Positions 2,679-27,968 of a stretch of DNA of 27,968 nucleotides are shown piece after piece (the stretch's first letter is position 1; each line of letters starts with the position of its first letter). Under the pieces are notes generated by a model. It made no database searches. It worked only from the letters and a program-made list of their open reading frames with translations, and was not told the origin of the DNA. The position numbers were made by a program, and so were the translations under genes. Source of the DNA: a virus (lineage: Duplodnaviria; Heunggongvirae; Uroviricota; Caudoviricetes); IMG/VR virus record IMGVR_UViG_3300032245_000624. One strand, written 5' to 3'.

Positions 2679-3410
2679 TCAAGGCTGTTGCAACATACTT
2701 TTTATTTTAGGAATATTCTCTGGAGTGATTTCCTGTGCCAATGCACTACCTATTGATGATAGTTGTTGTTTTTGTTGAGGACTAAGTTTAGTTGGATCAG
2801 TTTTGGCTACCGAGGCTGCTTGTGCCGCTTGTTGCGGATTTATTTTTGGATCTTGTATAGTACTCTTTAGTTGTGCCATTGCTTGTACTTGTTTTGGATC
2901 AGCTATAGGTGCAGTGCCTGGCTTTTGTTGCTGTTGTTGTGGCTGACCTGGTTTAGTTGGTGCAACAGGCTGTCCTGGCTTGGCAGGGGGTTGTCCTGCA
3001 ACAGGTGCGGCTGGTGTTGTTCCAGTAGCAGGCGCTGCACCAGGCTTTGCTGCCTGTCCGGTAGTTGGATCAGTTTCTTCTTCGTCTACTACTCGTTGCT
3101 GATTTTGACTTGGTGGATTGATGTTAGCAACAGGACTGGTTCCAGCCGCTTCCTTGTCATCGCCGGCTTGATTATCAGTGTCTTTGACAAAGTACTTGTA
3201 TTCTTGCATGAGGCTTTCGCGGAGTTGATCAAAGTCATCTCCATGTTCCACACTCTCGGCAGCACCGCTGCCTACCAGGCGACCTTTGAAAGGGTGATCT
3301 TTGCCACTCTTTTTGGCTTTGTCGGTTCCGCGAACTTGGTCTCCAGACTTTTGTTCAGGTTCCCCGGCAAACTTATCCATGCTCTCTAAGAGCTTACGCA
3401 TATCACTCAT
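2679..3410 (-). CDS. Hypothetical protein with Pro/Gln/Ala-rich low-complexity region, 243 aa
   Basis: ATGA overlap with upstream ORF; KLLE|S and QLRE|S motifs; repeated (A/T)KPGQP segments. Confidence 0.75.
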   Translation of the reverse strand: MSDMRKLLESMDKFAGEPEQKSGDQVRGTDKAKKSGKDHPFKGRLVGSGAAESVEHGDDFDQLRESLMQEYKYFVKDTDNQAGDDKEAAGTSPVANINPPSQNQQRVVDEEETDPTTGQAAKPGAAPATGTTPAAPVAGQPPAKPGQPVAPTKPGQPQQQQQKPGTAPIADPKQVQAMAQLKSTIQDPKINPQQAAQAASVAKTDPTKLSPQQKQQLSSIGSALAQEITPENIPKIKSMLQQP

Positions 3411-6400
3411 TTTTTCTTGGCCTTTTTCTGTTTTTTATAAAAGATGCTAACGCCAAATCCATTGCCGTCTCCTGTGCTAGTTGCAATGCCACCTGCACTA
3501 GTACCACCATCTTCCTTTACATATTTAGCGGCTTTTCGAATTGGTTCTTCTACAATCGCTGCCACTCGTTTTAATGCTGTTTCTTCTAGTTCAGTAACTG
3601 CTCGTTGTTTATTTTGGAATGCGCGACTGCGTGTACCACCTTGTCTACGAACTTTTTCCAGTTCTGCATGAGCTAGTTCAATTTCTTTTGCAATAGGCTC
3701 TAGATTCATTGATTGAATCTTTTTGTATACATTTTCCCACATCACTGGGTCATCAATGTGTTGTCCAGCAGACTCCAGGTCTTGAGCCAGTTTATTCACT
3801 CGACGAATCAAGCTCTGTTTCCAGCTACGCAAAGTCATGCGGCCCATGCCCACATCTGGTGCAAATTCACTGTTATACGGATCTTCACGATCGTATTGGA
3901 ACAGTGTTTCTTCTAGATCTCTATCGCCGTTTGGCATAGGCAACGCATAGTAATCTTCGTCTTCTTCATCAGCGTAGTCATTATACTCTACATTGCTGGA
4001 GTGGAAACTGTGCTTGCCGTGGTTGTATAAGTTAACAACAACAAAACGCTTGTCTGCACCAAAGCTGTCAATGTCACCAGTTTTACCTTCAAACTCCACA
4101 TTGCCTGTGATAATAACAGGGTCGCCGATGTGCAGTTCTTCTGCGTTTTCGCGCACGGCATCTTTAGGAACAGGCTTACCTGCCCACTTTTTTAATGCTT
4201 CGTGTCCGCGCTTGCTGTCTTTGACTTTCTTGGCCAGTGCTGGATCTTGTCTCAGCATCCAGCCTGGCTTGGCACCTGTGGCACCTTCATTTTGTGGGTA
4301 CCAAACTTTGCCTGTACCAAATTCGCGATCAGCTACTTGCTGTGCTAGTCTATTGCCAGTGGGCAGATACCATTTGCCTGAACGTGTTTGCTTTAATCCT
4401 AGCTCACGTGCTTTGTCAAAGTCTTTTACATTGTAGAAGATCATGCCGGTAATCTTACGCATCTTGTCGTCAAACTCTGAATTACCTTCGTCATCTTCTC
4501 TGCGGCGACCGCCAAGACTTGGTGCATGTGGACTTGCAAAGCCTGGGCTGTATCCACGGTTACGACCATATCCTGCTTCCGCTAAACCTTCTAGTTCTTC
4601 TGCTGGCCAGCTGATGTAGCTGTCGCCATTGATGTCGCCTGCTTGCACAACAAATGCGCCGCCGTTGTCATAGCCTTCATCTTGGCCAATTTCCCAACCT
4701 GCGGCTGCTAATGTTTTTTCTACACGAGGATCTTCGTCACCTTGCCACCACTGTGCGGCTAGACGTTTTAGTGTTTCATCGCTGAATCCATCGTTGCCGT
4801 CATCTCCGCCAGGAGGTGCAAATTCGTTAATACTTGGCTCTTTACCTAGATCTTTTTGACGCAGACTTTTCTTCATAGTATCAATCTTTTTACCTGCACC
4901 CACTTGGTCCAAGTTAGCATCCTTGGCAGCTTGATTGTACTTGCGTTTGACTTGCTTTAGTTCTGAGCCTTCCGCCATGCCTTGTTCATCAAACGGCAAA
5001 TACCAGAACCAGTTTTCAAATCCACCTGGATTTGTGTCGTAATCTAAATGTGCGCTATTTCTAGCACCACGCATCATTCTAGTAAATTCTGCCATGGCGT
5101 TGTTCTTTTCAGCCACGGCTTCCAAGGCATCATACAACTGACCTGCTTTGAAACTATCTTTATGTTTTTCAATACCTGGCGCCAATTGATCGTATACTTC
5201 AGCAAACTCAGCATGTAGGTCGCTCATTGCACTTTCACCTACTACGTCATCCATGGCACGTTTTAACAAACGTTCTTCTTGTTCTTTTCTTTTGTCCAGT
5301 GACTTGAATCTGTCATGCTTGTAGGATTCTACTTCGGGTTTATCAGTTAGGATATCAAACGCATCAGGATACTTGCCTGACACATAGGCCCATGCACGTT
5401 TGAATTCAGTTACATCGCCTGTCTTCAATGGTTCACGCAACAAACTGTATGCTGTTTCAATTTGATTAAAGTTATTATAAGACTCACGATGATCAACACA
5501 ATTACGATATGACTTGGTTAGCTTTTCTAAAATCTCGTCTGTGTTTAGTCCCTCTGAGATTAAACTTTTTCCATTCTTAAGGAAACTAAAACTTTCTTTA
5601 ATACCTTTACCTACTTTGCCAGTCACTGACTTCTGTGGTGTGTTTGCTGGATTTTTGCCTATCAAGTTATAGCCCTTCATCATTTTTCCTAATGTGCTTG
5701 CGTCCACGTCGTTATCGTCGCCCATGGTGGCCATCACATAACGTGGATCTTTTGAATTCTTTACAACGCCAACTCCTGCGGTCTCTAACACAGTGTCTTC
5801 GTTGGTATCAGTTAATGGTCCGCCGGTTACCCATGCATCACAGGTTCTGCGACTGGCGCATTTAAATTTTAAGAACTTACAATATCCTAGGTCACCAGCA
5901 TCGATAGTAGCTTCGGCGTCACTAGGATTGTCACGGTCAATACCTTGAGCAATACAGTCCAGTGTGTCTTGACGTACATCAAAGGCAGCACAGTTACCAC
6001 ATAGGCTTTGTTTAGCTTCATCTGCACTGTCAAGATTCCATTCATCTACTTTTTTCATCCAGAACTTGCGATTGGGTAGATCTGGATTCAGCGGGCCGTA
6101 CCCATATTCATCAATGGCCTTTTGTCTATTTTTAAGATTGAGTGCAATATCTTGTGTGGCAGGTGGGCATTCTTTGTTAACATCTTCTGACAGTCGAGGT
6201 GGACCGTACACAAAGGCCTTGGGATTCAAATTGAATTTCTTAGCAACTGCTTCGATATAAGCATGAGCTTTGCTCAATGGAATATCACGTGCTACCTGTT
6301 TCTTTATTTCTTGCCCAGGATACTTGCCCATGCCGTGAATGTAGATATTCACCAGCTCATCTTTGGTGAGCACAACACCTTCTGTAGTAACAGGAGTTTC

Positions 6401-7072
6401 AACTGGTTTAAGTTTAGGACTTGGCTTGGCAGCGGCTTCAGTCTGCCCATTGGGAATCTTGTCCAGTGTTTTGCCCAGCTCTGGGTCATTGATACCGTAT
6501 AGTTGTTTTAAAAATTCAGCACGTTGCTCAGGACTGTTGCGTACCTGATTCCAGGCAGCACGAGTTTGAGTGCCGTGACTTACATCTATAGTTTTGCCGC
6601 CAATGGTAATCTTGCGAGAACGCTCATTGGCAATAATAACATAGCCATGCTGGTCAGCAGTGGCGCAGTCATTTATATTTTTGAATTCTTGGAAGTAGCT
6701 AGGAGTACCGTCTTTTTTAAACGACCCTGGTCTGAGTCTTTGAGCATCTGGTGCGCCCACTGCGGTAATAAAAATAATGTTTTCTTTATCAGTCTGAAAT
6801 TGATCAGGAAGATCATAGGGTTTGCTGACTTCAATTACATTGTGATTGGGCACACCAGCGGCGTGCATGAAGCGAATTTTATCACTAAAATTAAATGGAC
6901 TTTTGTCCCCGTCTGTTTTGTTGCTGGTAACAATGTACACATTGTCGCTGCCAAATTTGCCAGCCAGCGTTTCAAATACATCCAGGTGCCCTAAATGAAA
7001 GGGCTGGAATCGTCCAGGATATGTAACCACTAGACGATGTCCAGCGCCTTCAAACATTTCAACTATAAACAT
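3407..7072 (-). CDS. 1221-aa modular protein: N-terminal HxGH (cytidylyltransferase-like) nucleotidyltransferase followed by many small modules
   Basis: YPGRFQPFHLGH at the N-terminus; Cys-rich module; SH3/KOW-like module (LHIGDPVIITG...GKTGDI); modules separated by hydrophobic-x-Glu linkers. Confidence 0.8.
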   Translation of the reverse strand: MFIVEMFEGAGHRLVVTYPGRFQPFHLGHLDVFETLAGKFGSDNVYIVTSNKTDGDKSPFNFSDKIRFMHAAGVPNHNVIEVSKPYDLPDQFQTDKENIIFITAVGAPDAQRLRPGSFKKDGTPSYFQEFKNINDCATADQHGYVIIANERSRKITIGGKTIDVSHGTQTRAAWNQVRNSPEQRAEFLKQLYGINDPELGKTLDKIPNGQTEAAAKPSPKLKPVETPVTTEGVVLTKDELVNIYIHGMGKYPGQEIKKQVARDIPLSKAHAYIEAVAKKFNLNPKAFVYGPPRLSEDVNKECPPATQDIALNLKNRQKAIDEYGYGPLNPDLPNRKFWMKKVDEWNLDSADEAKQSLCGNCAAFDVRQDTLDCIAQGIDRDNPSDAEATIDAGDLGYCKFLKFKCASRRTCDAWVTGGPLTDTNEDTVLETAGVGVVKNSKDPRYVMATMGDDNDVDASTLGKMMKGYNLIGKNPANTPQKSVTGKVGKGIKESFSFLKNGKSLISEGLNTDEILEKLTKSYRNCVDHRESYNNFNQIETAYSLLREPLKTGDVTEFKRAWAYVSGKYPDAFDILTDKPEVESYKHDRFKSLDKRKEQEERLLKRAMDDVVGESAMSDLHAEFAEVYDQLAPGIEKHKDSFKAGQLYDALEAVAEKNNAMAEFTRMMRGARNSAHLDYDTNPGGFENWFWYLPFDEQGMAEGSELKQVKRKYNQAAKDANLDQVGAGKKIDTMKKSLRQKDLGKEPSINEFAPPGGDDGNDGFSDETLKRLAAQWWQGDEDPRVEKTLAAAGWEIGQDEGYDNGGAFVVQAGDINGDSYISWPAEELEGLAEAGYGRNRGYSPGFASPHAPSLGGRRREDDEGNSEFDDKMRKITGMIFYNVKDFDKARELGLKQTRSGKWYLPTGNRLAQQVADREFGTGKVWYPQNEGATGAKPGWMLRQDPALAKKVKDSKRGHEALKKWAGKPVPKDAVRENAEELHIGDPVIITGNVEFEGKTGDIDSFGADKRFVVVNLYNHGKHSFHSSNVEYNDYADEEDEDYYALPMPNGDRDLEETLFQYDREDPYNSEFAPDVGMGRMTLRSWKQSLIRRVNKLAQDLESAGQHIDDPVMWENVYKKIQSMNLEPIAKEIELAHAELEKVRRQGGTRSRAFQNKQRAVTELEETALKRVAAIVEEPIRKAAKYVKEDGGTSAGGIATSTGDGNGFGVSIFYKKQKKAKKK

Positions 7073-8306: not shown

Positions 8307-9032
8307 TTATTTATCAGGCTCAATTTGCCGGTACTCCTCAATTGATCTAACAAAACCAGGAGAGATCAAACTCAACATGGTTATGATACCACGATCCTTG
8401 ATATAAAAATATCCTCCCCATATGGTATCAAACGGCTTGGCCAGCATGCCAGCTAGATGCCCTGGCACATGCACATCTGATCCAAGATTCTGTAGGTAAG
8501 ACAAAATTTGTTTTTTGGTTTCCACAGCATAGCGGCCTTCTCGAACATTCACACGAAATGGATATTCAACGGGTCCGTTTTTTACTACAAACCCTTCTTG
8601 GATTGTTTTGAGTATCTGTGCAGTAGCAGGCCTGTGTATCCTTGCCAAATGCTGATTTGAATTGTGTTGAATAGATCTAGCAAAATCCAATAGATCTTTT
8701 TCATTATAGCTGTACACACTCAGTCTTGGTTCTTCAACACGAAATTTTAAACGAGTTTCAAAATCTTTTTGTACCTGGCGTATTAGATGAAGAATTGCAA
8801 TTTCGTCAATAGTGGGTAACTTCATACGTCGGTTAACCCAACTACCACCATAGTTGATGGATCGTCGTTGTCTTATGCTGACATGTTCTGCTATAGTTTG
8901 GTCAGGGTACCTTAGTACACTAACTCCCACGGCCTCTACCTCTAGTTTATAGAAATACTGACCGTAGAAGTTACGTGTAACAGGTTTGACTTCTATATCA
9001 GGATTTAATTTGGTCCAGTACAATGTATCCAT
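8307..9032 (-). CDS. Hypothetical protein, 241 aa
   Basis: ORF track 8307..9080; likely start MDTLYW at 9032, overlapping the clpA 3' end by 35 nt. No family recognised. Confidence 0.75.
   Translation of the reverse strand: MDTLYWTKLNPDIEVKPVTRNFYGQYFYKLEVEAVGVSVLRYPDQTIAEHVSIRQRRSINYGGSWVNRRMKLPTIDEIAILHLIRQVQKDFETRLKFRVEEPRLSVYSYNEKDLLDFARSIQHNSNQHLARIHRPATAQILKTIQEGFVVKNGPVEYPFRVNVREGRYAVETKKQILSYLQNLGSDVHVPGHLAGMLAKPFDTIWGGYFYIKDRGIITMLSLISPGFVRSIEEYRQIEPDK
8308..8313 (-). promoter_or_regulatory. TAAATA late-promoter-like motif
   Basis: ATAAATA overlapping the stop of the upstream gene, 25 nt before the 54-aa ORF. Confidence 0.5.
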
Positions 9033-11289
9033 TAGAATCAATAGTTGGTAAAATAGTAAATGCAGATTGCTGTATATCAAATGTCATGGAATCGTTTTCA
9101 AAGTCCACAACCACAACAGATCCAGCTGGAACATCTTCAAATAACATTTTCTTACTCAGTGGCACTTTGATCAAGTCGTTGATCTTGCGTGTTAGAGGAC
9201 GAGCCCCCATCTTGCTGTCAAATCCAGTGTCCACCAAGTGATCAACTGCAACTTCACTCAAACGCACACGTACCTGTTTGTCGCTTAACAATTCATTCAT
9301 TTCATTGATAAACTTAGCAACAATCTTCTTCATGCTCAGACGATCCAGTTTGTTAAACTTACAGATACCATCCAAGCGATTACGGAACTCTGGCTTGAAG
9401 AAATCTTTCACAGCTCGGTCGTCTTCGCCTGTGCGTTCTAGACTGCGTCCAAAACCAATATTGTTACGTTCGTTGTCTGCGGCACCTAGGTTAGATGTCA
9501 TGATAATGATACTGTTACGGCAGTCGGCTTTTTTGCCGTTGCTACTGGTAACAAGACCTTCGTCCATCATGGTAAGCAAGATGTTGGTAACATCTGGGTG
9601 AGCCTTTTCTACTTCATCAAACAAGATAACACAGTTAGGGTTCTTTTCAATTTCGCTGATTAGCAAGCCGCCGCCAAGGTTGCTGTCATCATAACCTACG
9701 TATCCTGGGGGCGCACCAATCAGTTTAGCGATCGAATGCTTCTCTTGGTACTCACTCATGTCATATCGTAGTAGTTTCATCCCAAGACTTTCGGTTAACA
9801 ATTTAGCCAGTTCAGTTTTGCCTGTGCCTGTTGGGCCCATGAACAAGAACGAACCTATGGGTTTGTTGAGTGCTTTCAAACCAGCACGGCTTACATAAAT
9901 CTTTTCTAGCACAACATCAACAGCAGAGTCTTGACCAAACAGTTTGTTCTTGATCTTGAACTCTAAACCATCTAGACTCTTGGCGCCTTCGGTGTTGTTG
10001 ATTTGTTCAATTGGTAGCTTGGTAAACTTGCTGATAGTTTCAACAATGTTTATTTTGCTTGCAGTCCAGTCAACAGCATTGATCTTTAGTTTAGCACAAG
10101 CAGTGTCAATCAAGTCAATGGCTTTGTCTGGTAGCTTCTTGTCTGTTTGATAACGCACTGATAAGTCTACTGCGGAATCAATGGCCTCGTCGCTGATTTT
10201 GCCACCATGGAATTCTTCAAAGTGAACACGCAGGCCACGCAGAATATCTTTTGCCACAGCAGGAGTAGGCTCATCAACAGTGAGTCTATAGAATCGACGC
10301 ATCAACGCACGATCCTTCTCAAAACTTTGTGTGTATTCTTCCCAAGTGGTTGATGCAATAACCTTGATGCGACCTTTGGTCAGTGCTGGCTTGATCATGT
10401 TGGCAAAGTCAACATTGCTACCTGACCCAGAACCTGCGCCACGCATTTGATGTGCTTCGTCAATGAACAATATGCACTTGCCCTTGATGTTCAGTGCCTT
10501 GATAACATCCTTGAGCTTTTCTTCAAACTCGCCGCGGTATTTGCTACCGGCCAGCAATGATCCAATATCTAGGTTGTACACAGTGTAGTCTTTTAGGTAC
10601 TCTGGTACTTCGCCGTCCACAATCTTCTTGGCCAGTCCTTCTGCAATAGCAGTTTTACCCACACCAGGATCGCCTACCATGAGCACGTTTGATTTGTTGC
10701 GCTTGGCCAGCACATGTGAGATTTCTTCAATTTCATATTCGCGACCAATCACTGGATCAATCTTGCCTTCTTTGGCTTGTTCATTGAGATCGTCGCAATA
10801 CTCTTTGAGCACTGCCAGTGCCTGTTGTTTGTGAGCACTCTTGCGCTGACGGCCTTCGCGATAGTTTTCATTATAGAAATCTACAATTTTACCACGCTCA
10901 ATACCTGCTTTGATAATAAAATACGAAGCATGGCTGTTGGCTTCGCTACTGATGCTAATAAACAGATCAATCACTTGCATGTGACCACGTCCAGTGAATA
11001 GAACTTGTGTGAGTGCGCGATTGAACACACGCTCTAGTGCATGAGTTTTCTTTGGCTCAGTGTCATCAAGTTTAGCCACCAGCCAGTGTGCATTATCGTG
11101 ATAGTCGTTGATGTCATGAACAATGCCTTCTACGTTCGCGCCAAATGCTACCAGTAAATCACCAAATGGTTTGTAGGTAAGCACAGCATGTAATAGGTGC
11201 TCCAGAGTCACATATTCATGATTGTACTTTTTGGCATTTTCGCTAGCTGAAGTAATAATAACTTCAATTTCTGGATTGGGCTGTATCAT
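8998..11289 (-). CDS. clpA: ClpA-type Hsp100 AAA+ ATPase (ATP-dependent Clp protease ATP-binding subunit)
   Basis: Clp N-domain (HEYVTLEHLL), two Walker A motifs (GDPGVGKT, GPTGTGKTE), Walker B (LFIDE, LFDEVEKAHPDV), pore loop KYRGEFE, IGF loop (NNIGFG), GARPL; 763 aa with no ClpB middle domain. Confidence 0.93.
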   Translation of the reverse strand: MIQPNPEIEVIITSASENAKKYNHEYVTLEHLLHAVLTYKPFGDLLVAFGANVEGIVHDINDYHDNAHWLVAKLDDTEPKKTHALERVFNRALTQVLFTGRGHMQVIDLFISISSEANSHASYFIIKAGIERGKIVDFYNENYREGRQRKSAHKQQALAVLKEYCDDLNEQAKEGKIDPVIGREYEIEEISHVLAKRNKSNVLMVGDPGVGKTAIAEGLAKKIVDGEVPEYLKDYTVYNLDIGSLLAGSKYRGEFEEKLKDVIKALNIKGKCILFIDEAHQMRGAGSGSGSNVDFANMIKPALTKGRIKVIASTTWEEYTQSFEKDRALMRRFYRLTVDEPTPAVAKDILRGLRVHFEEFHGGKISDEAIDSAVDLSVRYQTDKKLPDKAIDLIDTACAKLKINAVDWTASKINIVETISKFTKLPIEQINNTEGAKSLDGLEFKIKNKLFGQDSAVDVVLEKIYVSRAGLKALNKPIGSFLFMGPTGTGKTELAKLLTESLGMKLLRYDMSEYQEKHSIAKLIGAPPGYVGYDDSNLGGGLLISEIEKNPNCVILFDEVEKAHPDVTNILLTMMDEGLVTSSNGKKADCRNSIIIMTSNLGAADNERNNIGFGRSLERTGEDDRAVKDFFKPEFRNRLDGICKFNKLDRLSMKKIVAKFINEMNELLSDKQVRVRLSEVAVDHLVDTGFDSKMGARPLTRKINDLIKVPLSKKMLFEDVPAGSVVVVDFENDSMTFDIQQSAFTILPTIDSNGYIVLDQIKS

Positions 11290-22317: not shown

Positions 22318-22741
22318 TGATTACTGCTTCCTGTATAGAGGCTGTTGAAATAGTTCCTGAGGGCAGTTGTGATCCTGGCATGATTTCAGGTTGCTCGTCT
22401 TGTATTTTTTCTAGTTTTTTGGCCAGGGTTTCGATATACTCTGGATCTAGGGTAACCATCACGGGCATGATATACTTGTGGTAGTTTACAAAGTAATACT
22501 CAAAGATTTCGTCAAAATTTCTGTTGTCATTGAACTTGTTTGTGACCACAGTTTTTTCTTTTAGGTCAATGATCAACTGTGCGTTCATGTCCTTGGGTTT
22601 TACCACTCTACCAACTTCAACTTTTTCGTCGTACATCACATTGTCAGGATTGTCCATCCAGCCTTTTTGACTGGTGTTAACACCGGGGCGTGGCTTTTTA
22701 AAATACTGCACAATTAGAAAAATAGATTTTTTATTCATCAT
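22295..22741 (-). CDS. Hypothetical protein, 148 aa
   Basis: ATGA overlap with clamp-loader gene; no family recognised. Confidence 0.75.
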   Translation of the reverse strand: MMNKKSIFLIVQYFKKPRPGVNTSQKGWMDNPDNVMYDEKVEVGRVVKPKDMNAQLIIDLKEKTVVTNKFNDNRNFDEIFEYYFVNYHKYIMPVMVTLDPEYIETLAKKLEKIQDEQPEIMPGSQLPSGTISTASIQEAVINAETQAQ

Positions 22742-23652
22742 AGTTGACTCAATTCAATAATAGTTGCACTCAAGTTAATTTCGCTGTCGGCACAGGTTGC
22801 GTTCTGTACCAGTCCTTTGCGTATCACAAGAATAGCTTCATCTTGCTTTTCTTGTGTGTTTCCCCACAGTTCCAGGTTATCATACATCCAACGGAAGATC
22901 TCTTCCATTTCATCGGGACGTACATTTGCACACAGCAGTTTCCTAGCATCATTCACACGTTTGGCCTTGAACAGATCCACTACCTTGACTTTGAAATCAT
23001 CTGTGCCGTCTTCCTGCGAAGCTTCTGCCAGTTGCCCGGTTGCTGAACCTGACTGTAGTAGGTTTAGACATTTACGAAGATCTGGGTAAGTGGCCTTGAC
23101 ATAGCTGTCTAGTACGTCAAGATCAAAGTTGACTTTTTCCTCAACCAAGATAGTTGCAACACGAGCAGTGAACTCCACTGGGTCAGTGCTGTCAATATGA
23201 AATCCTTGGCAACGAGATTTCAGTGCTGGAATGATATAGTGCAGTTTGTTACAGGTAAGAATAAATCTTGCTGTGCTGGCGTACTGTTCCATTAAGCCAC
23301 GCAGAATAGCCTGTGCATTGTGACTGAGGTAGTCTGCCTCGTCTAGTAACACTACCTTGAACTCGCCAAACGGCATGGTTTGTACAAAGCCTTCTACTTT
23401 TTCTTTGAGGAAGTCCACACCGTTGTTTCTACTGGCGTTGACTTGTAAAAAGTCATATTCGTCCAGTTCCATGGCATTTACGAGAACCTTGGCCAGTGTG
23501 GTTTTGCCTGTGCCTGGCGGCCCGCTTAACAACAGGTGAGGAATACTTTTCTCTTTAACCCATTGTTCTACTGTGTTGCGTTGATTGTCAGTTTGAAACA
23601 CATACTCGCTGACATTCTTTGGACGATACTTTTCAACCCATAATTCTTTCAT
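22738..23652 (-). CDS. Sliding-clamp loader ATPase subunit (RFC small subunit / T4 gp44-like)
   Basis: LWVEKYRP, PHLLLSGPPGTGKTT, NAS, VVLLDEADYLS..AQAILR, FILTCN, IIPALKSRC, PDLRKCLNLLQ. Confidence 0.92.
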   Translation of the reverse strand: MKELWVEKYRPKNVSEYVFQTDNQRNTVEQWVKEKSIPHLLLSGPPGTGKTTLAKVLVNAMELDEYDFLQVNASRNNGVDFLKEKVEGFVQTMPFGEFKVVLLDEADYLSHNAQAILRGLMEQYASTARFILTCNKLHYIIPALKSRCQGFHIDSTDPVEFTARVATILVEEKVNFDLDVLDSYVKATYPDLRKCLNLLQSGSATGQLAEASQEDGTDDFKVKVVDLFKAKRVNDARKLLCANVRPDEMEEIFRWMYDNLELWGNTQEKQDEAILVIRKGLVQNATCADSEINLSATIIELSQL

Positions 23653-23936: not shown

Positions 23937-24362
23937 TTAACGCTCTTTTTTAGCAACACTCACAGCAGTTGAAATAGTTTCGTCTATGTCTGGCTGTTCA
24001 TCTGACACAAACAAAATGCAGGCTGGGTCTACACGGCGGATAGTAAATGTTTCGTCGTTGACTTCGACTTCTAGTCCCCGACTCCAGCGACCATGTTCTA
24101 CCAAGATCCATTGTCCTGGCTCAACATCCTGTTGCTCTGGTCCAGTAGCATATACCTGGGCCCAGCGTGGGCGAATACCTTCGCTCTTTCCGTCGTCGCT
24201 GAGTAGTACAATGCCACTGGCTAGCTTGCGACCTGAGAAGTCCATGTCTCGTACAATCACGTTGTTTTTAAGTGGAACCAGTCGTCCAATTTTGTGAGTG
24301 AACTTAACTGACCCGCCTGCATCAAACAGGCCTTCTCCGAGTGTTTTGGTTGTTTTGGCCAT
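23937..24362 (-). CDS. groES: GroES/Cpn10-like co-chaperonin
   Basis: LVPLKNNVIV...LASGIVL...AQVYATGP...VEPGQWIL matches the Cpn10 pattern (PL.D.V.V, SGI.L, V.AVGPG, V..GD.VL); N- and C-terminal extensions. Confidence 0.8.
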   Translation of the reverse strand: MAKTTKTLGEGLFDAGGSVKFTHKIGRLVPLKNNVIVRDMDFSGRKLASGIVLLSDDGKSEGIRPRWAQVYATGPEQQDVEPGQWILVEHGRWSRGLEVEVNDETFTIRRVDPACILFVSDEQPDIDETISTAVSVAKKER

Positions 24363-24779
24363 TTAAATCCTCGATGGTCCAGACTTCTTAGGTGTTAGTA
24401 CCTTTTGCTCCACTGTGGCAGTTTTAGCAACAGCGTCAGCTAGACTACCACGTAGCTTTTTACCAACTGGCATTTCTGCGTCCTGTTCAGCAATTTCTGG
24501 ATCTAGGTCAGCAACATCATCAACCTCAGGCTGACGTTGCATTTGTGCAATTTCGCGATCACGTGCGGCAACACTTTCTTCTGTGTACACAGCATTAGAC
24601 TGATAATGGTCTTGCATGACTTCGTTGCGTGTACGCACAACAGTACCACCTGGTCCTAGTTCGTCGCCGCGAGCATTCACTTTCATGTTGCCTACTGCGA
24701 TTGTTTCTTCGTTTTGCAAACGTAGCATATCCACGTCAATGGACTTGCCTTGTGCAGTTCTGTAAATTTTTCTATTCAT
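24363..24779 (-). CDS. Hypothetical protein, 138 aa
   Basis: AAGGAG RBS; TAAATA at 24803-24808; YRTAQGK...AVGNMKVNARGDELGPGG core. Confidence 0.8.
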   Translation of the reverse strand: MNRKIYRTAQGKSIDVDMLRLQNEETIAVGNMKVNARGDELGPGGTVVRTRNEVMQDHYQSNAVYTEESVAARDREIAQMQRQPEVDDVADLDPEIAEQDAEMPVGKKLRGSLADAVAKTATVEQKVLTPKKSGPSRI

Positions 24780-24805: not shown

Positions 24806-25318
24806 TTATTTGAGAAACTCATGTGGATCTAAATCATAGTAAAGACTGTTGATTCGATGTACTCCGATTTTGTATAATACAAAACTGGCCACACTAGATC
24901 CACGACCAACACCCCAAACTACATTGTGTGATCTCATGGTATCTACTAGGTACTTCATATAACGTAATAGTACAAAAGCATCTCGTTCTTGGTATAACAA
25001 AAGCTCTTCACCACACCGTTGAAGTTCAGCGTTATTGTTGCACTGGTTCAGCACCCAGGCTGCAATATCCATGTCACGATACTCCACAGGCATGTGCCAA
25101 TTGGATTGCAGTTGTTGATCAAACGCATTAACATCAGAATCATTGAATTGGTACAAACCCAGCGTGGGCATGTCTGCAAAAAACTTGGAAACAGCAGAAT
25201 TGTATTCTGCTGGATCCTCAACATTAAATCTACCTAGGTCCAGTGCAGGATCTTGATACAATAAGTCAAACAGTTCTCTAGAGTCAGTGTATGCTACGCC
25301 GTGATTGTCGTACTTCAT
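24806..25318 (-). CDS. dnaE: Stand-alone fragment of family C DNA polymerase III alpha subunit
   Basis: RCGEELLLY...LLRYMKYLVDTMRSHNVVWGVGRGSSVASFVLYKIGVHRINSLYYDLDPHEFLK parallels DnaE RL..EL...GPGRGS.AGSLVAY.LGIT..DPL.Y.L.FERFL; only 170 aa. Confidence 0.8.
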   Translation of the reverse strand: MKYDNHGVAYTDSRELFDLLYQDPALDLGRFNVEDPAEYNSAVSKFFADMPTLGLYQFNDSDVNAFDQQLQSNWHMPVEYRDMDIAAWVLNQCNNNAELQRCGEELLLYQERDAFVLLRYMKYLVDTMRSHNVVWGVGRGSSVASFVLYKIGVHRINSLYYDLDPHEFLK

Positions 25319-25563
25319 TTGATATCAATTATTTTGCTAAAATCTTTATCCTTGCCACCAAGAGCATTTTGTAATTGCTTTTGGTAACGATTGTTTAACT
25401 CATCTTGGTAATGCTGGCGTAATGCTTGCATCTGATCAATAATTCCATATGGGCCAGAACGATAAGCCTGAGCTAGTTTTTGATTTAGCTCGGCAAATTT
25501 TTTGTTCAGCTCGTCGTCAGTTAAGCTGGACAGATCTGGCGCCATTGGATGAAACGTTATCAC
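25315..25563 (-). CDS. Hypothetical helical protein, 82 aa
   Basis: ATGA overlaps on both sides; DLSSLTDDELNKKFAEL. Confidence 0.75.
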   Translation of the reverse strand: MITFHPMAPDLSSLTDDELNKKFAELNQKLAQAYRSGPYGIIDQMQALRQHYQDELNNRYQKQLQNALGGKDKDFSKIIDIK

Positions 25564-25748
25564 TTGGCTTCCTTGCGAGCGTTCTTTTCTGCTGTGATTT
25601 CGTTTCGTCGAGCTTTGATTAGTTTGGTCATTTCGCCCAATGCCTTGCGAGCACGGGTACCAGCGGCATTGTTACCGCTGTCAAATTTTTCGTTTTCTTT
25701 TAAGAATTCTTCCATGAATCCTTTGATGCTTTCAGTGGTATTACCCAT
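25560..25748 (-). CDS. Histone H1-like Hc1 family small protein
   Basis: ENEKFDSGNNAAGTRARKAL.E..KL.K..R matches the GNKAAGTRARK signature of short Hc1-family proteins. Confidence 0.7.
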   Translation of the reverse strand: MGNTTESIKGFMEEFLKENEKFDSGNNAAGTRARKALGEMTKLIKARRNEITAEKNARKEAK

Positions 25749-26237: not shown

Positions 26238-27968
26238 TCAATTGAGTTTTGTCCATTTGAAGAAGGTTTGACCTTTGATACTCAGGGTTGGACTTGAGCC
26301 GCCTGATATAGAAGCCTGTACCTTGACGTTGGTAGCCGCGGTATGGTAGTATGTACCTTGGATACGAGCCAACATACCTGTCACACTGGTCGAACTTGCT
26401 GTTGCAAGAGCACCTGCAGAACTTGCGGTAGCAACAGCACTAGCCACGCTCATTGCACCAGTGGCGCTAGCGTTCTGCTCAACTGTGTAGTTACATGTAC
26501 CTGCACTAAAAACCATTGAGAAAGTCTTGGTCATTGCGGCTGCAGAAGCAACTGTACAATCATGGAAGATCCAAGCTTCAAAGAAGTAGGACTTGTTGGC
26601 TTCCGCAGTAAAGTTCAAGTTAGTAACATCAGTTAACGAAGCACTGGTAACGCTTTGTGCGGAACCTACTCCACTAACCAGTGCAACACCGCTTGCACCA
26701 ACTGCATTGATTGGCTGTGCAGAACCTTGAACAAACAAGTTACCTGCAATGCTTGCGCCTGCTCCAGCACCTGACAGCACCAAAGCACCTGTACCTGCGC
26801 CGCCAGCTGTGGTGTCAGTTACTGTGATAAACTGCCCCACGTTCAAACGTCCGCCAATACCAACACCAGCAGTGCCAGCAACAACCAGCGCACCAGAAGT
26901 GGTTGTGGTACTTGCTTGACTTGCGGTTAGTACTAGGTTACCGTTGATTACACTGGTGTTGTTGATGTACATACCACCTGATGACACAACCAACGCACCT
27001 TCTTGCCAACCAGCACCGTTTGTATTGATACTGCCTGCTGTGGCACTAGTAATCACTAGGTTACCAGCTGTTACTGCATTGCCTGCAATACCAACTCCAC
27101 CCTTAACAACCAATGCACCTGATGTGGATGATGTTGATGTAGTAGTTGCAACCACAACCACGTTAGAGTCTGCGGAAGCAAGAGAACCTAGGTATACATT
27201 ACCTTGTACCCAAAGGTTACCAGCAATACCAACACCGCCTGAGTTAACACGACCATTTGCCGCAACAACTGCTTGTACTACTAATGCACCAGTGTTGAAA
27301 CTTATGCTTGGAGTACCAGACTGAATATAAATGTTACCTGAACCAAAACCTGGGTTGGTACCGTCACTTGGTTGACCTACATTGATGTTACCAAAAATGT
27401 TAACACCACCCAATGCTGTCATGGCACCAAAACTACCACCTAATGGAGTGTAAGCAACAGGGCTACCAGCAATGATAGCACCAAATGCGTTGTTACGGTT
27501 GCGTAGGTATAACGAACCAGAGTTGTTAATACCAATTTGCAACGAACCAGATATTGTTGCGCCACCGTAACGTGCTTGTTGTACGTTACCAATGACCAAT
27601 GAACCAGTGTTCATGTCATCGTATGTGATATCGCCGTTGGATACACCAACGTTGATTCGGATGTTGCCTAGCCCACTGTCGTCACCAACGTTTAGTGCTC
27701 TGGCAATATGTGCGCCACCAGTGACCACCAATGCACCATTGTAGTATGGATTTGGTGCACCACTAGAACCTGGGCTGTAAATGCTGTTGGTTACGTTGCC
27801 TAAAATAGTAAATCCATTGGCAATAACGTTTTTAACAACACCCAATCCGCCAAGTATAATTGTGGAAGCATCTGTTGTGCTAGATGCTTGTGTGGTATTT
27901 GCTATTAGAACGTTTGAGCCAAAGAATGCGGCACCAGCAACACTGAAGCCACCAGCGGATTGTAATGC
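26238..27968 (-). CDS. Tail-fibre-like beta-repeat structural protein, 5' truncated by window edge
   Basis: About 9 imperfect (S/T)GALVV-x-GG-x-GI-x-GNL repeats; frame remains open from 27845 to base 27968 (ALQSAGGFSVAGAAFFGSNV...). Confidence 0.75.
   Translation of the reverse strand, partial: ALQSAGGFSVAGAAFFGSNVLIANTTQASSTTDASTIILGGLGVVKNVIANGFTILGNVTNSIYSPGSSGAPNPYYNGALVVTGGAHIARALNVGDDSGLGNIRINVGVSNGDITYDDMNTGSLVIGNVQQARYGGATISGSLQIGINNSGSLYLRNRNNAFGAIIAGSPVAYTPLGGSFGAMTALGGVNIFGNINVGQPSDGTNPGFGSGNIYIQSGTPSISFNTGALVVQAVVAANGRVNSGGVGIAGNLWVQGNVYLGSLASADSNVVVVATTTSTSSTSGALVVKGGVGIAGNAVTAGNLVITSATAGSINTNGAGWQEGALVVSSGGMYINNTSVINGNLVLTASQASTTTTSGALVVAGTAGVGIGGRLNVGQFITVTDTTAGGAGTGALVLSGAGAGASIAGNLFVQGSAQPINAVGASGVALVSGVGSAQSVTSASLTDVTNLNFTAEANKSYFFEAWIFHDCTVASAAAMTKTFSMVFSAGTCNYTVEQNASATGAMSVASAVATASSAGALATASSTSVTGMLARIQGTYYHTAATNVKVQASISGGSSPTLSIKGQTFFKWTKLN

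Follow-up and report, generated by a model that had tools for sequence, protein, structure and literature searches.

A 170-residue DnaE-like gene of an uncultured T4-related giant phage as the probable N-terminal unit of a split minimal DNA polymerase III alpha

Described split polymerases and the setting of the locus

Cyanobacterial DnaE (Ssp, Npu) is encoded by two distant genes, and the two halves carry intein fragments and are rejoined by protein trans-splicing. For the jumbo phages of group 2.2, including Atu_ph07, a "minimal split DNA polymerase III alpha" was described from sequence by Iyer, Anantharaman, Krishnan, Burroughs and Aravind (Iyer et al., 2021; Viruses 13:63, PMC7824862). 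The two proteins were proposed to reconstitute an enzyme cooperating with the family B polymerase which these phages carry already, and the split enzyme was viewed as a picture of the ancestral state (PMC7824862). The genome paper of CBB called a 172-aa homologue a "truncated" DnaE-like protein (PMC5259590). A search of the literature yielded no experimental study of the split enzyme.

Here, a stretch of 27,968 nucleotides (IMG/VR record IMGVR_UViG_3300032245_000624, called the window throughout) was analyzed with respect to one of its genes, located at 24806-25318. The window originates from an uncultured clade of giant phages related to T4. Among its products are a gp44-type clamp loader, MazG, PhoH, a GroES-like protein, an Hc1-like histone and a Lon-like protease, and both gene content and gene order agree with a jumbo phage related to T4 that has a clamp loader of the RFC type. 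The idea of a split polymerase was already published in 2021, and the window gene is a further member; the value of the analysis for this window is a correct annotation. Probably, the gene encodes the N-terminal unit of the split minimal Pol III alpha known from group 2.2 phages (Rak2-, PA5oct- and Atu_ph07-like), which would pair non-covalently with a second protein and act as an accessory polymerase. Downstream of it, three genes are of relevance:

24363..24779, minus strand: 138-aa downstream neighbor, PHROG 14844, given as context only; conserved in position and unrelated to DnaE
23937-24362, minus strand: GroES/Cpn10-like protein of 141 aa, PHROG 931; Cpn10 listed as weak in relatives
22738..23652, minus strand: large subunit of a gp44-type clamp loader, three genes downstream; PHROG 168, E 5.5e-78

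The gene order around the clamp loader is common to the window, Atu_ph07, Cassandra and GAP32. Homologues of PHROG 14844 directly follow the N-terminal unit in Atu_ph07, Cassandra and GAP32, and the GroES/Cpn10-like gene was found two genes downstream of this unit in all four lineages compared. Its 141-aa product in the window is presumably a gp31-type co-chaperonin. Upstream of the N-terminal unit an 82-aa ORF and the genes for the Hc1-like protein and MazG are located.

Some further genes of the window, all on the minus strand, deserve mention in their own right. The 62-aa protein encoded at 25560-25748, between MazG and the N-terminal unit, matched Pfam Hc1 (Chlamydia histone H1-like) with an E of 4e-14, and such a gene is also present in the closest relative (L048). 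A long ORF at 26238-27968, which continues past the end of the window, is rich in G, A, S, T and V with recurring 'GALVV...G' motifs and gave no PHROG match; its product is probably a fiber or surface protein. On the overlapping Logan contig L019 its counterpart has 1108 aa, with an 1827-aa gene upstream. The 1221-aa ORF at 3407-7072 matched PHROG models of the cytidylyltransferase type over a short N-terminal stretch only. The 763-aa protein encoded at 8998-11289 belongs to PHROG 4871 (ATP-dependent protease, E 2e-238), and in Cassandra an ATP-dependent protease PHROG annotation is likewise found close to the N-terminal unit.

Ends, conservation and selection of the gene

The gene and its parts are as follows:

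24806..25318, minus strand: probable N-terminal unit of a split minimal DNA polymerase III alpha (group 2.2 jumbo phages); assigned from the ORF, PF07733, PHROG 11127, about 8000 homologues and the AF2 model
25100..25318, minus strand: residues 1-73, lineage-variable N-terminal segment without VIA-align match in solved DnaE
24809..25099, minus strand: residues 74-170, first part of a DnaE-type palm up to the helix preceding the DxD strand, from VIA-align
24893..24913, minus strand: G136-V-G-R-G-S-S142, the hG[GS] nucleotide-binding loop, from its invariance in 63 homologues and from the complex model

Between its ATG and TAA the ORF is intact; the 170-aa product carries GVGRGSS at residues 136-142 and has ...DPHEFLK as its last residues. 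PF07733 (DNA_pol3_alpha) was found by Pfam with 26.8 bits against a cut-off of 23.9, the match being limited to residues 120-169 of the protein and to positions 45-94 of the 260 in the profile. Using phmmer against the PDB sequences, residues 123-168 were aligned to Taq Pol III alpha 408-453, the last residues of which are LLFERF. The protein stops about 10 residues short of the position of the catalytic PDxD motif. An earlier note on this DNA had described an ORF with its own start and stop, a GRGS motif and a terminal HEFLK equivalent to FERFL, and these observations were confirmed. Also in agreement with it, neither PHP nor intein families were detected by Pfam in the 170-aa protein and the five neighboring proteins scanned, and the next gene, encoding the 138-aa protein, is not DnaE-like. 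A finger match was equally not obtained by Pfam for the 170-aa protein. With the 82-aa ORF upstream the gene shares the letters ATGA, in which its start codon and the stop codon of that ORF overlap. A gap of 26 nt separates it from the next gene, and AAGGAG is found 8 nt ahead of the ATG of the latter. This is the tight coupling in an operon that had been put forward in the note as an argument against a pseudogene.

The family to which the protein belongs is large and uniform. PHROG 11127 (171 positions) matched it from end to end with an E of 1.2e-38, and about 8000 metagenome proteins match the N-terminal unit. The best 120 of these homologues mostly comprise 169-178 aa and show an identity of 60-74% to the query. 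When a library clustered at 50% identity was searched, E<=0.001 was reached by 980 representatives; among the best 150 of them nearly all have 160-190 aa and end at the last residue of the query. Comparing 63 diverse members, R101, E105, G136, G138, R139, G140, S141, L148 and F168 were found invariant. All 63 aligned proteins end with (E/D)F(L/M/V)(K/R) or at most 4 residues beyond, and the ORF of the window ends 2 residues past the invariant F168. In 15 of 15 related loci checked, the stop codon was located in the same column directly after this boundary. Between the window and its closest relative (72% amino acid identity) dS was saturated, and dN/dS values were taken from other pairs of the family, with 0.075 (dS 0.70) for one pair and 0.10 (dS 1.6) for another. 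The conserved boundary together with a dN/dS of about 0.08-0.10 indicates, at the sequence level, purifying selection on the N-terminal unit and not the neutral decay that the earlier note had wished to see examined.

These data bear on a further reading, which we consider hardly credible: the gene would be a truncated or decaying dnaE remnant, would owe its form to a frameshift or an artefact of assembly, or would encode the N-extein of a DnaE split by an intein. This reading could be based on the Pfam model being matched by just 50 residues and on the term "truncated" used for the 172-aa homologue in the CBB paper. However, thousands of homologues share the same length and the same stop column. 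Moreover, an identical gene with the identical stop is present in a second (Logan) assembly, with 100% identity across 6317 nt, and a DnaE-like continuation of the ORF was not found in any frame of the 28-kb window, so that no frameshift or assembly error restoring a full-length dnaE, as considered in the note, came to light. Due to the fixed length and stop column in relatives and the low dN/dS, a pseudogene, a frameshift and an assembly error are excluded, and a decaying dnaE remnant is refuted by the conserved boundary and purifying selection. An intein-split DnaE was rejected as well, as no intein/Hint family was detected in the proteins scanned and no room is left between the FL(K/R) end and the start of the partner protein described below.

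Within the family the sequences diverge considerably. The N-terminal unit of the window is 38-44% identical to the copies of cultured phages and 38-48% identical to those of the relatives in which a partner gene was found, and homologues of Rak2-like phages align from residue 74 onward only. Three proteins were longer forms of the N-terminal unit, two of them fused to the downstream neighbor and one to an upstream protein; a fusion of the N-terminal unit with the partner was not among these three. In the metagenome proteins P0121 and P0122 (383-400 aa) the N-terminal unit stands in frame with a PHROG 14844 homologue, with the junction ...EEFLKQDKNM.... The rare fusions to the 138-aa neighbor may reflect a functional link, or read-through or sequencing errors.

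Structure of the N-terminal unit and its proposed partner in related phages

The AlphaFold2 model of the N-terminal unit had a mean pLDDT of 94.4, with residues 1-73 also confidently modeled. Using Foldseek, all top matches were C-family polymerases, with zero matches at E<=0.001. Residues 74-170 have the fold of a Pol-beta-like nucleotidyltransferase, and VIA-align placed them on solved enzymes as follows:

M. tuberculosis DnaE1 (5lew), residues 307-413: Z 12.4, rmsd 2.1 Å, 93 aligned
E. coli alpha (4jom), residues 279-393: Z 11.3, rmsd 2.4 Å, 93 aligned
Taq alpha (4iqj), residues 296-455: Z 10.2, rmsd 1.9 Å, 92 aligned
PolC (3f2b), residues 825-965: Z 8.2, rmsd 2.4 Å, 91 aligned

The match extends from the start of the palm to 8 residues short of the catalytic aspartate D401 of E. 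coli alpha. Thus, the proposal that the protein ends just before the catalytic aspartates was borne out in structural terms. For residues 1-73 no counterpart was found in the solved DnaE structures of these VIA-align comparisons.

When PF07733, PF17657 and PF02811 were run against the complete genomes of Atu_ph07, Cassandra and GAP32, only the N-terminal unit scored above cut-off, and no PHP match was obtained by Pfam in these three genomes. The PHP and finger fragments for which the earlier note had suggested a genome-wide search did not appear as Pfam matches in these relatives; a shortened finger is found within the partner protein. The palm, finger and PHP models of Pfam are too insensitive for the partner, and this null result does not oppose a split enzyme. 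A weak PF07733 match in GAP32 (at 56.6 kb, 13.4 bits, with 2 stops) was discarded as chance, as it runs from the last part of one gene into the beginning of a dCMP deaminase gene.

The first lead to the partner came from PHROG 405, a model of full-length phage DnaE, with weak matches in Cassandra and Atu_ph07. The corresponding ORFs encode 200 aa in Cassandra (PA5oct-like) and 191 aa in Atu_ph07 and open with MAKVVTDVDIDV... and MKNIPDIDIDF..., at the PDxDxDF catalytic strand of DnaE. A C-terminal unit in a separate gene, with the DxD, a third Asp and finger motifs, is present in Atu_ph07, Cassandra, GAP32 and a 277-kb IMG/VR genome with terminal repeats; in the latter the N-terminal unit and a 198-aa partner lie about 55 kb apart. 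In GAP32, Cassandra and Atu_ph07 the two genes are separated by about 34, 44 and 182 kb, respectively. Partner proteins begin 3-5 residues ahead of D-I-D-I-D, and D6, D8, D10, K69, D71, R138, P139, F166, K167, H170 and Y174 are invariant. From these motifs and the structural ranges given below we infer the relation to DnaE: the region D6-D10 would correspond to the PDxD strand with two catalytic Asp, K69/D71 presumably to the third catalytic Asp in the K-F/M-D-F-L motif, and F166/K167/H170, as we assume, to the FNKSH motif of the finger.

The partner family yielded 6868 matches, the best 120 of which comprise 185-206 aa. Both units are very common in metagenomes, with thousands of clusters each. 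Using tblastn over phage records, the partner was detected in 96 and the N-terminal unit in 93. Grouped by the first word of the organism name, the tallies for partner versus N-terminal unit were near-identical, with Escherichia 34 versus 34, Pseudomonas 11 versus 11, Klebsiella 11 versus 10, Salmonella 8 versus 8, Erwinia 8 versus 8, Xanthomonas 4 versus 4, Yersinia 4 versus 4, Agrobacterium 2 versus 2 and Serratia 2 versus 2. The phyletic distributions of the two units match. In the 28-kb window the partner was not found (tblastn, best E 0.13), which is expected given the gene separation of 34 to 182 kb in relatives. The separate ORF starting near PDID envisaged in the earlier note therefore exists in the complete genomes of relatives and is missing from the window itself; judged from these relatives, the genome of this phage would encode one elsewhere. 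Four of five IMG/VR contigs with an N-terminal unit also gave no partner, these four being fragments with an estimated completeness of 16-51%.

At the level of sequence profiles, all matches of the partner to DnaE models remained below cut-off, and no DnaE was found with the partner profile among the PDB sequences. The partner of an IMG/VR phage (L046:1501-2097), modeled alone, had a pLDDT of 70.6 with low confidence for the first 70 residues. This model was compared without Foldseek to 48,161 PDB representative chains. The top seven, including the four given here, were C-family polymerases, the next structure having a Z of 3.7:

DnaE1, residues 420-808: Z 8.5, rmsd 8.0, 170 aligned
Taq, residues 458-838: Z 7.6, rmsd 6.6, 168 aligned
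E. coli, residues 405-781: Z 6.6, rmsd 3.5, 119 aligned
PolC, residues 968-1357: Z 6.4, rmsd 6.0, 168 aligned

In each enzyme the range matched by the partner opens a few residues past the end of the range matched by the N-terminal unit. As the two ranges adjoin, the two proteins represent consecutive pieces of one DnaE core, and both are homologous to DnaE. With about 190 aa the partner covers a DnaE range of about 380-390 residues. Since it is so much shorter than its DnaE counterpart, it is without large parts of the latter, much of the thumb among them, and a processive DNA polymerase activity is not assured.

Complex prediction for the N-terminal unit of the window with the IMG/VR partner gave a score of 0.88, while the best of 3 controls reached 0.03. 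The mark set for this score is reached by 58 of 80 solved complexes and by 2 of 110 mismatched pairs. Alignments built by us were used as input (A1 for the N-terminal unit, A3 for the partner), the partner being taken from another phage. Three runs agreed in at least 96% of contacts, with a partner pLDDT of at least 86. In the model, the GRGS loop of the N-terminal unit (residues 131-144) is in contact with the DIDID strand of the partner (residues 1-13), and residues 1-9, 19, 27-31 and 63-76 of the N-terminal unit also contact the partner. A model of the heterodimer that the earlier note had suggested predicting was thus obtained. We are aware that this pass may reflect memory of solved DnaE structures and not real binding, as both halves lie in one chain of these structures. 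Modeled alone, the partner had a pLDDT below 50 at residues 25-54, and the mean within the predicted heterodimer was 87. The gain would fit a strand-completion interface which folds only with the N-terminal unit.

Proposed enzyme and alternative roles

According to the reading we regard as probable, the N-terminal unit would supply the first Pol-beta-like palm part including the GRGS loop, by which the triphosphate of an incoming nucleotide is held in DnaE. From the partner of about 190-200 aa would come the following beta-strand, on which two of the catalytic aspartates lie (DIDID), as well as the third one (K-L/F-D) and a finger of reduced length with the IRP and FKKSH motifs. Joining without covalent linkage and without an intein, the two proteins would form a nucleotidyltransferase of about 370 aa without PHP, clamp-binding and OB domains, and the likely role would be that of an accessory template-dependent DNA polymerase beside the family B replicase of the phage. 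One of the two readings of the earlier note had been a family C polymerase that is divided within the palm and put together from the products of separate genes, and this reading gained support from the DIDID partner in relatives, the matching distribution and the adjoining structural ranges.

The other of those readings, a non-catalytic module, did not find favor. Here the N-terminal unit alone would be an accessory protein, either a partner of the replisome or clamp loader or a decoy which binds or poisons the host Pol III. Its position beside the gp44 clamp-loader block in four lineages, the large distance to the partner gene in GAP32, Cassandra and Atu_ph07, and the rare in-frame fusions with the downstream neighbor and not with the partner speak for such a role. 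It is nevertheless quite improbable, as the invariant residues form the nucleotide-binding GRGS loop and no surface patch, the unit is distributed like a partner whose catalytic triad is intact and whose catalytic residues are all invariant, and the corresponding region of DnaE is the palm interior. The beta, tau and epsilon subunits are not known to dock at the DnaE palm interior.

It is rather unlikely that the heterodimer forms a nucleotidyltransferase which does not replicate DNA but acts in end tailing or repair, in the synthesis of short primers or signaling nucleotides, or in host conflict. The Pol-beta-like fold serves many non-replicative transferases, the split enzyme lacks PHP, clamp-binding and OB elements and most of the thumb, and a family B polymerase is already present in these phages (Iyer et al., PMC7824862). 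Against this, the DnaE-typical finger motifs (IRP, FKKSHxxAY) are invariant in the partner, the closest structures to both units are solely replicative C-family polymerases, and the gene of the N-terminal unit is located in a replication block, by the clamp loader. Taken more broadly, an unconventional phage-specific nucleotidyltransferase, with counter-defence among its conceivable tasks, or a second role of the N-terminal unit beside the 138-aa neighbor and the clamp loader, has a small chance of being correct; the rare in-frame fusions to the neighbor hint at such a second role.

If active when reconstituted, the accessory polymerase favored here would have a family C core smaller than any other known and would be a natural active site built across two polypeptides without an intein, which bears on the evolution of polymerases. 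It also bears on why giant phages retain a second polymerase beside their family B replicase.

Comparison with known systems

Cyanobacterial intein-split DnaE and the phage system are alike in that a C-family catalytic subunit is derived from two distant genes. However, the cyanobacterial protein breaks at a different site, while in the phage system the GS loop and the DxD strand stand on either side of the break and no intein is present; with such a break and no intein sequence, any assembly must be non-covalent. With DnaE and PolC (PDB 2hnh, 2hpi, 5lew, 3f2b) the window protein shares the first palm part (Z 8-12), the GRGS motif and the next helix. In contrast to these enzymes of 900-1200 aa, which combine PHP, the Asp triad, fingers and clamp-binding in one chain, the 170-aa polypeptide of the window is without PHP, thumb, finger, clamp-binding and OB parts and without the catalytic aspartates. 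Compared to the published split Pol III alpha, the window differs by its origin from an uncultured clade, with the low identity to cultured copies and the lineage-variable first 73 residues described above, and by a partner gene not found within the 28 kb examined. Length, the boundary before the DxD and the invariant GRGS loop are the same as in the published N-terminal unit (PHROG 11127), which has homologues in Atu_ph07, PA5oct-like and Rak2-like phages, and so is the neighborhood, in which MazG and, further on, the N-terminal unit, a small protein, a GroES-like protein and the gp44 clamp loader occur in this order.
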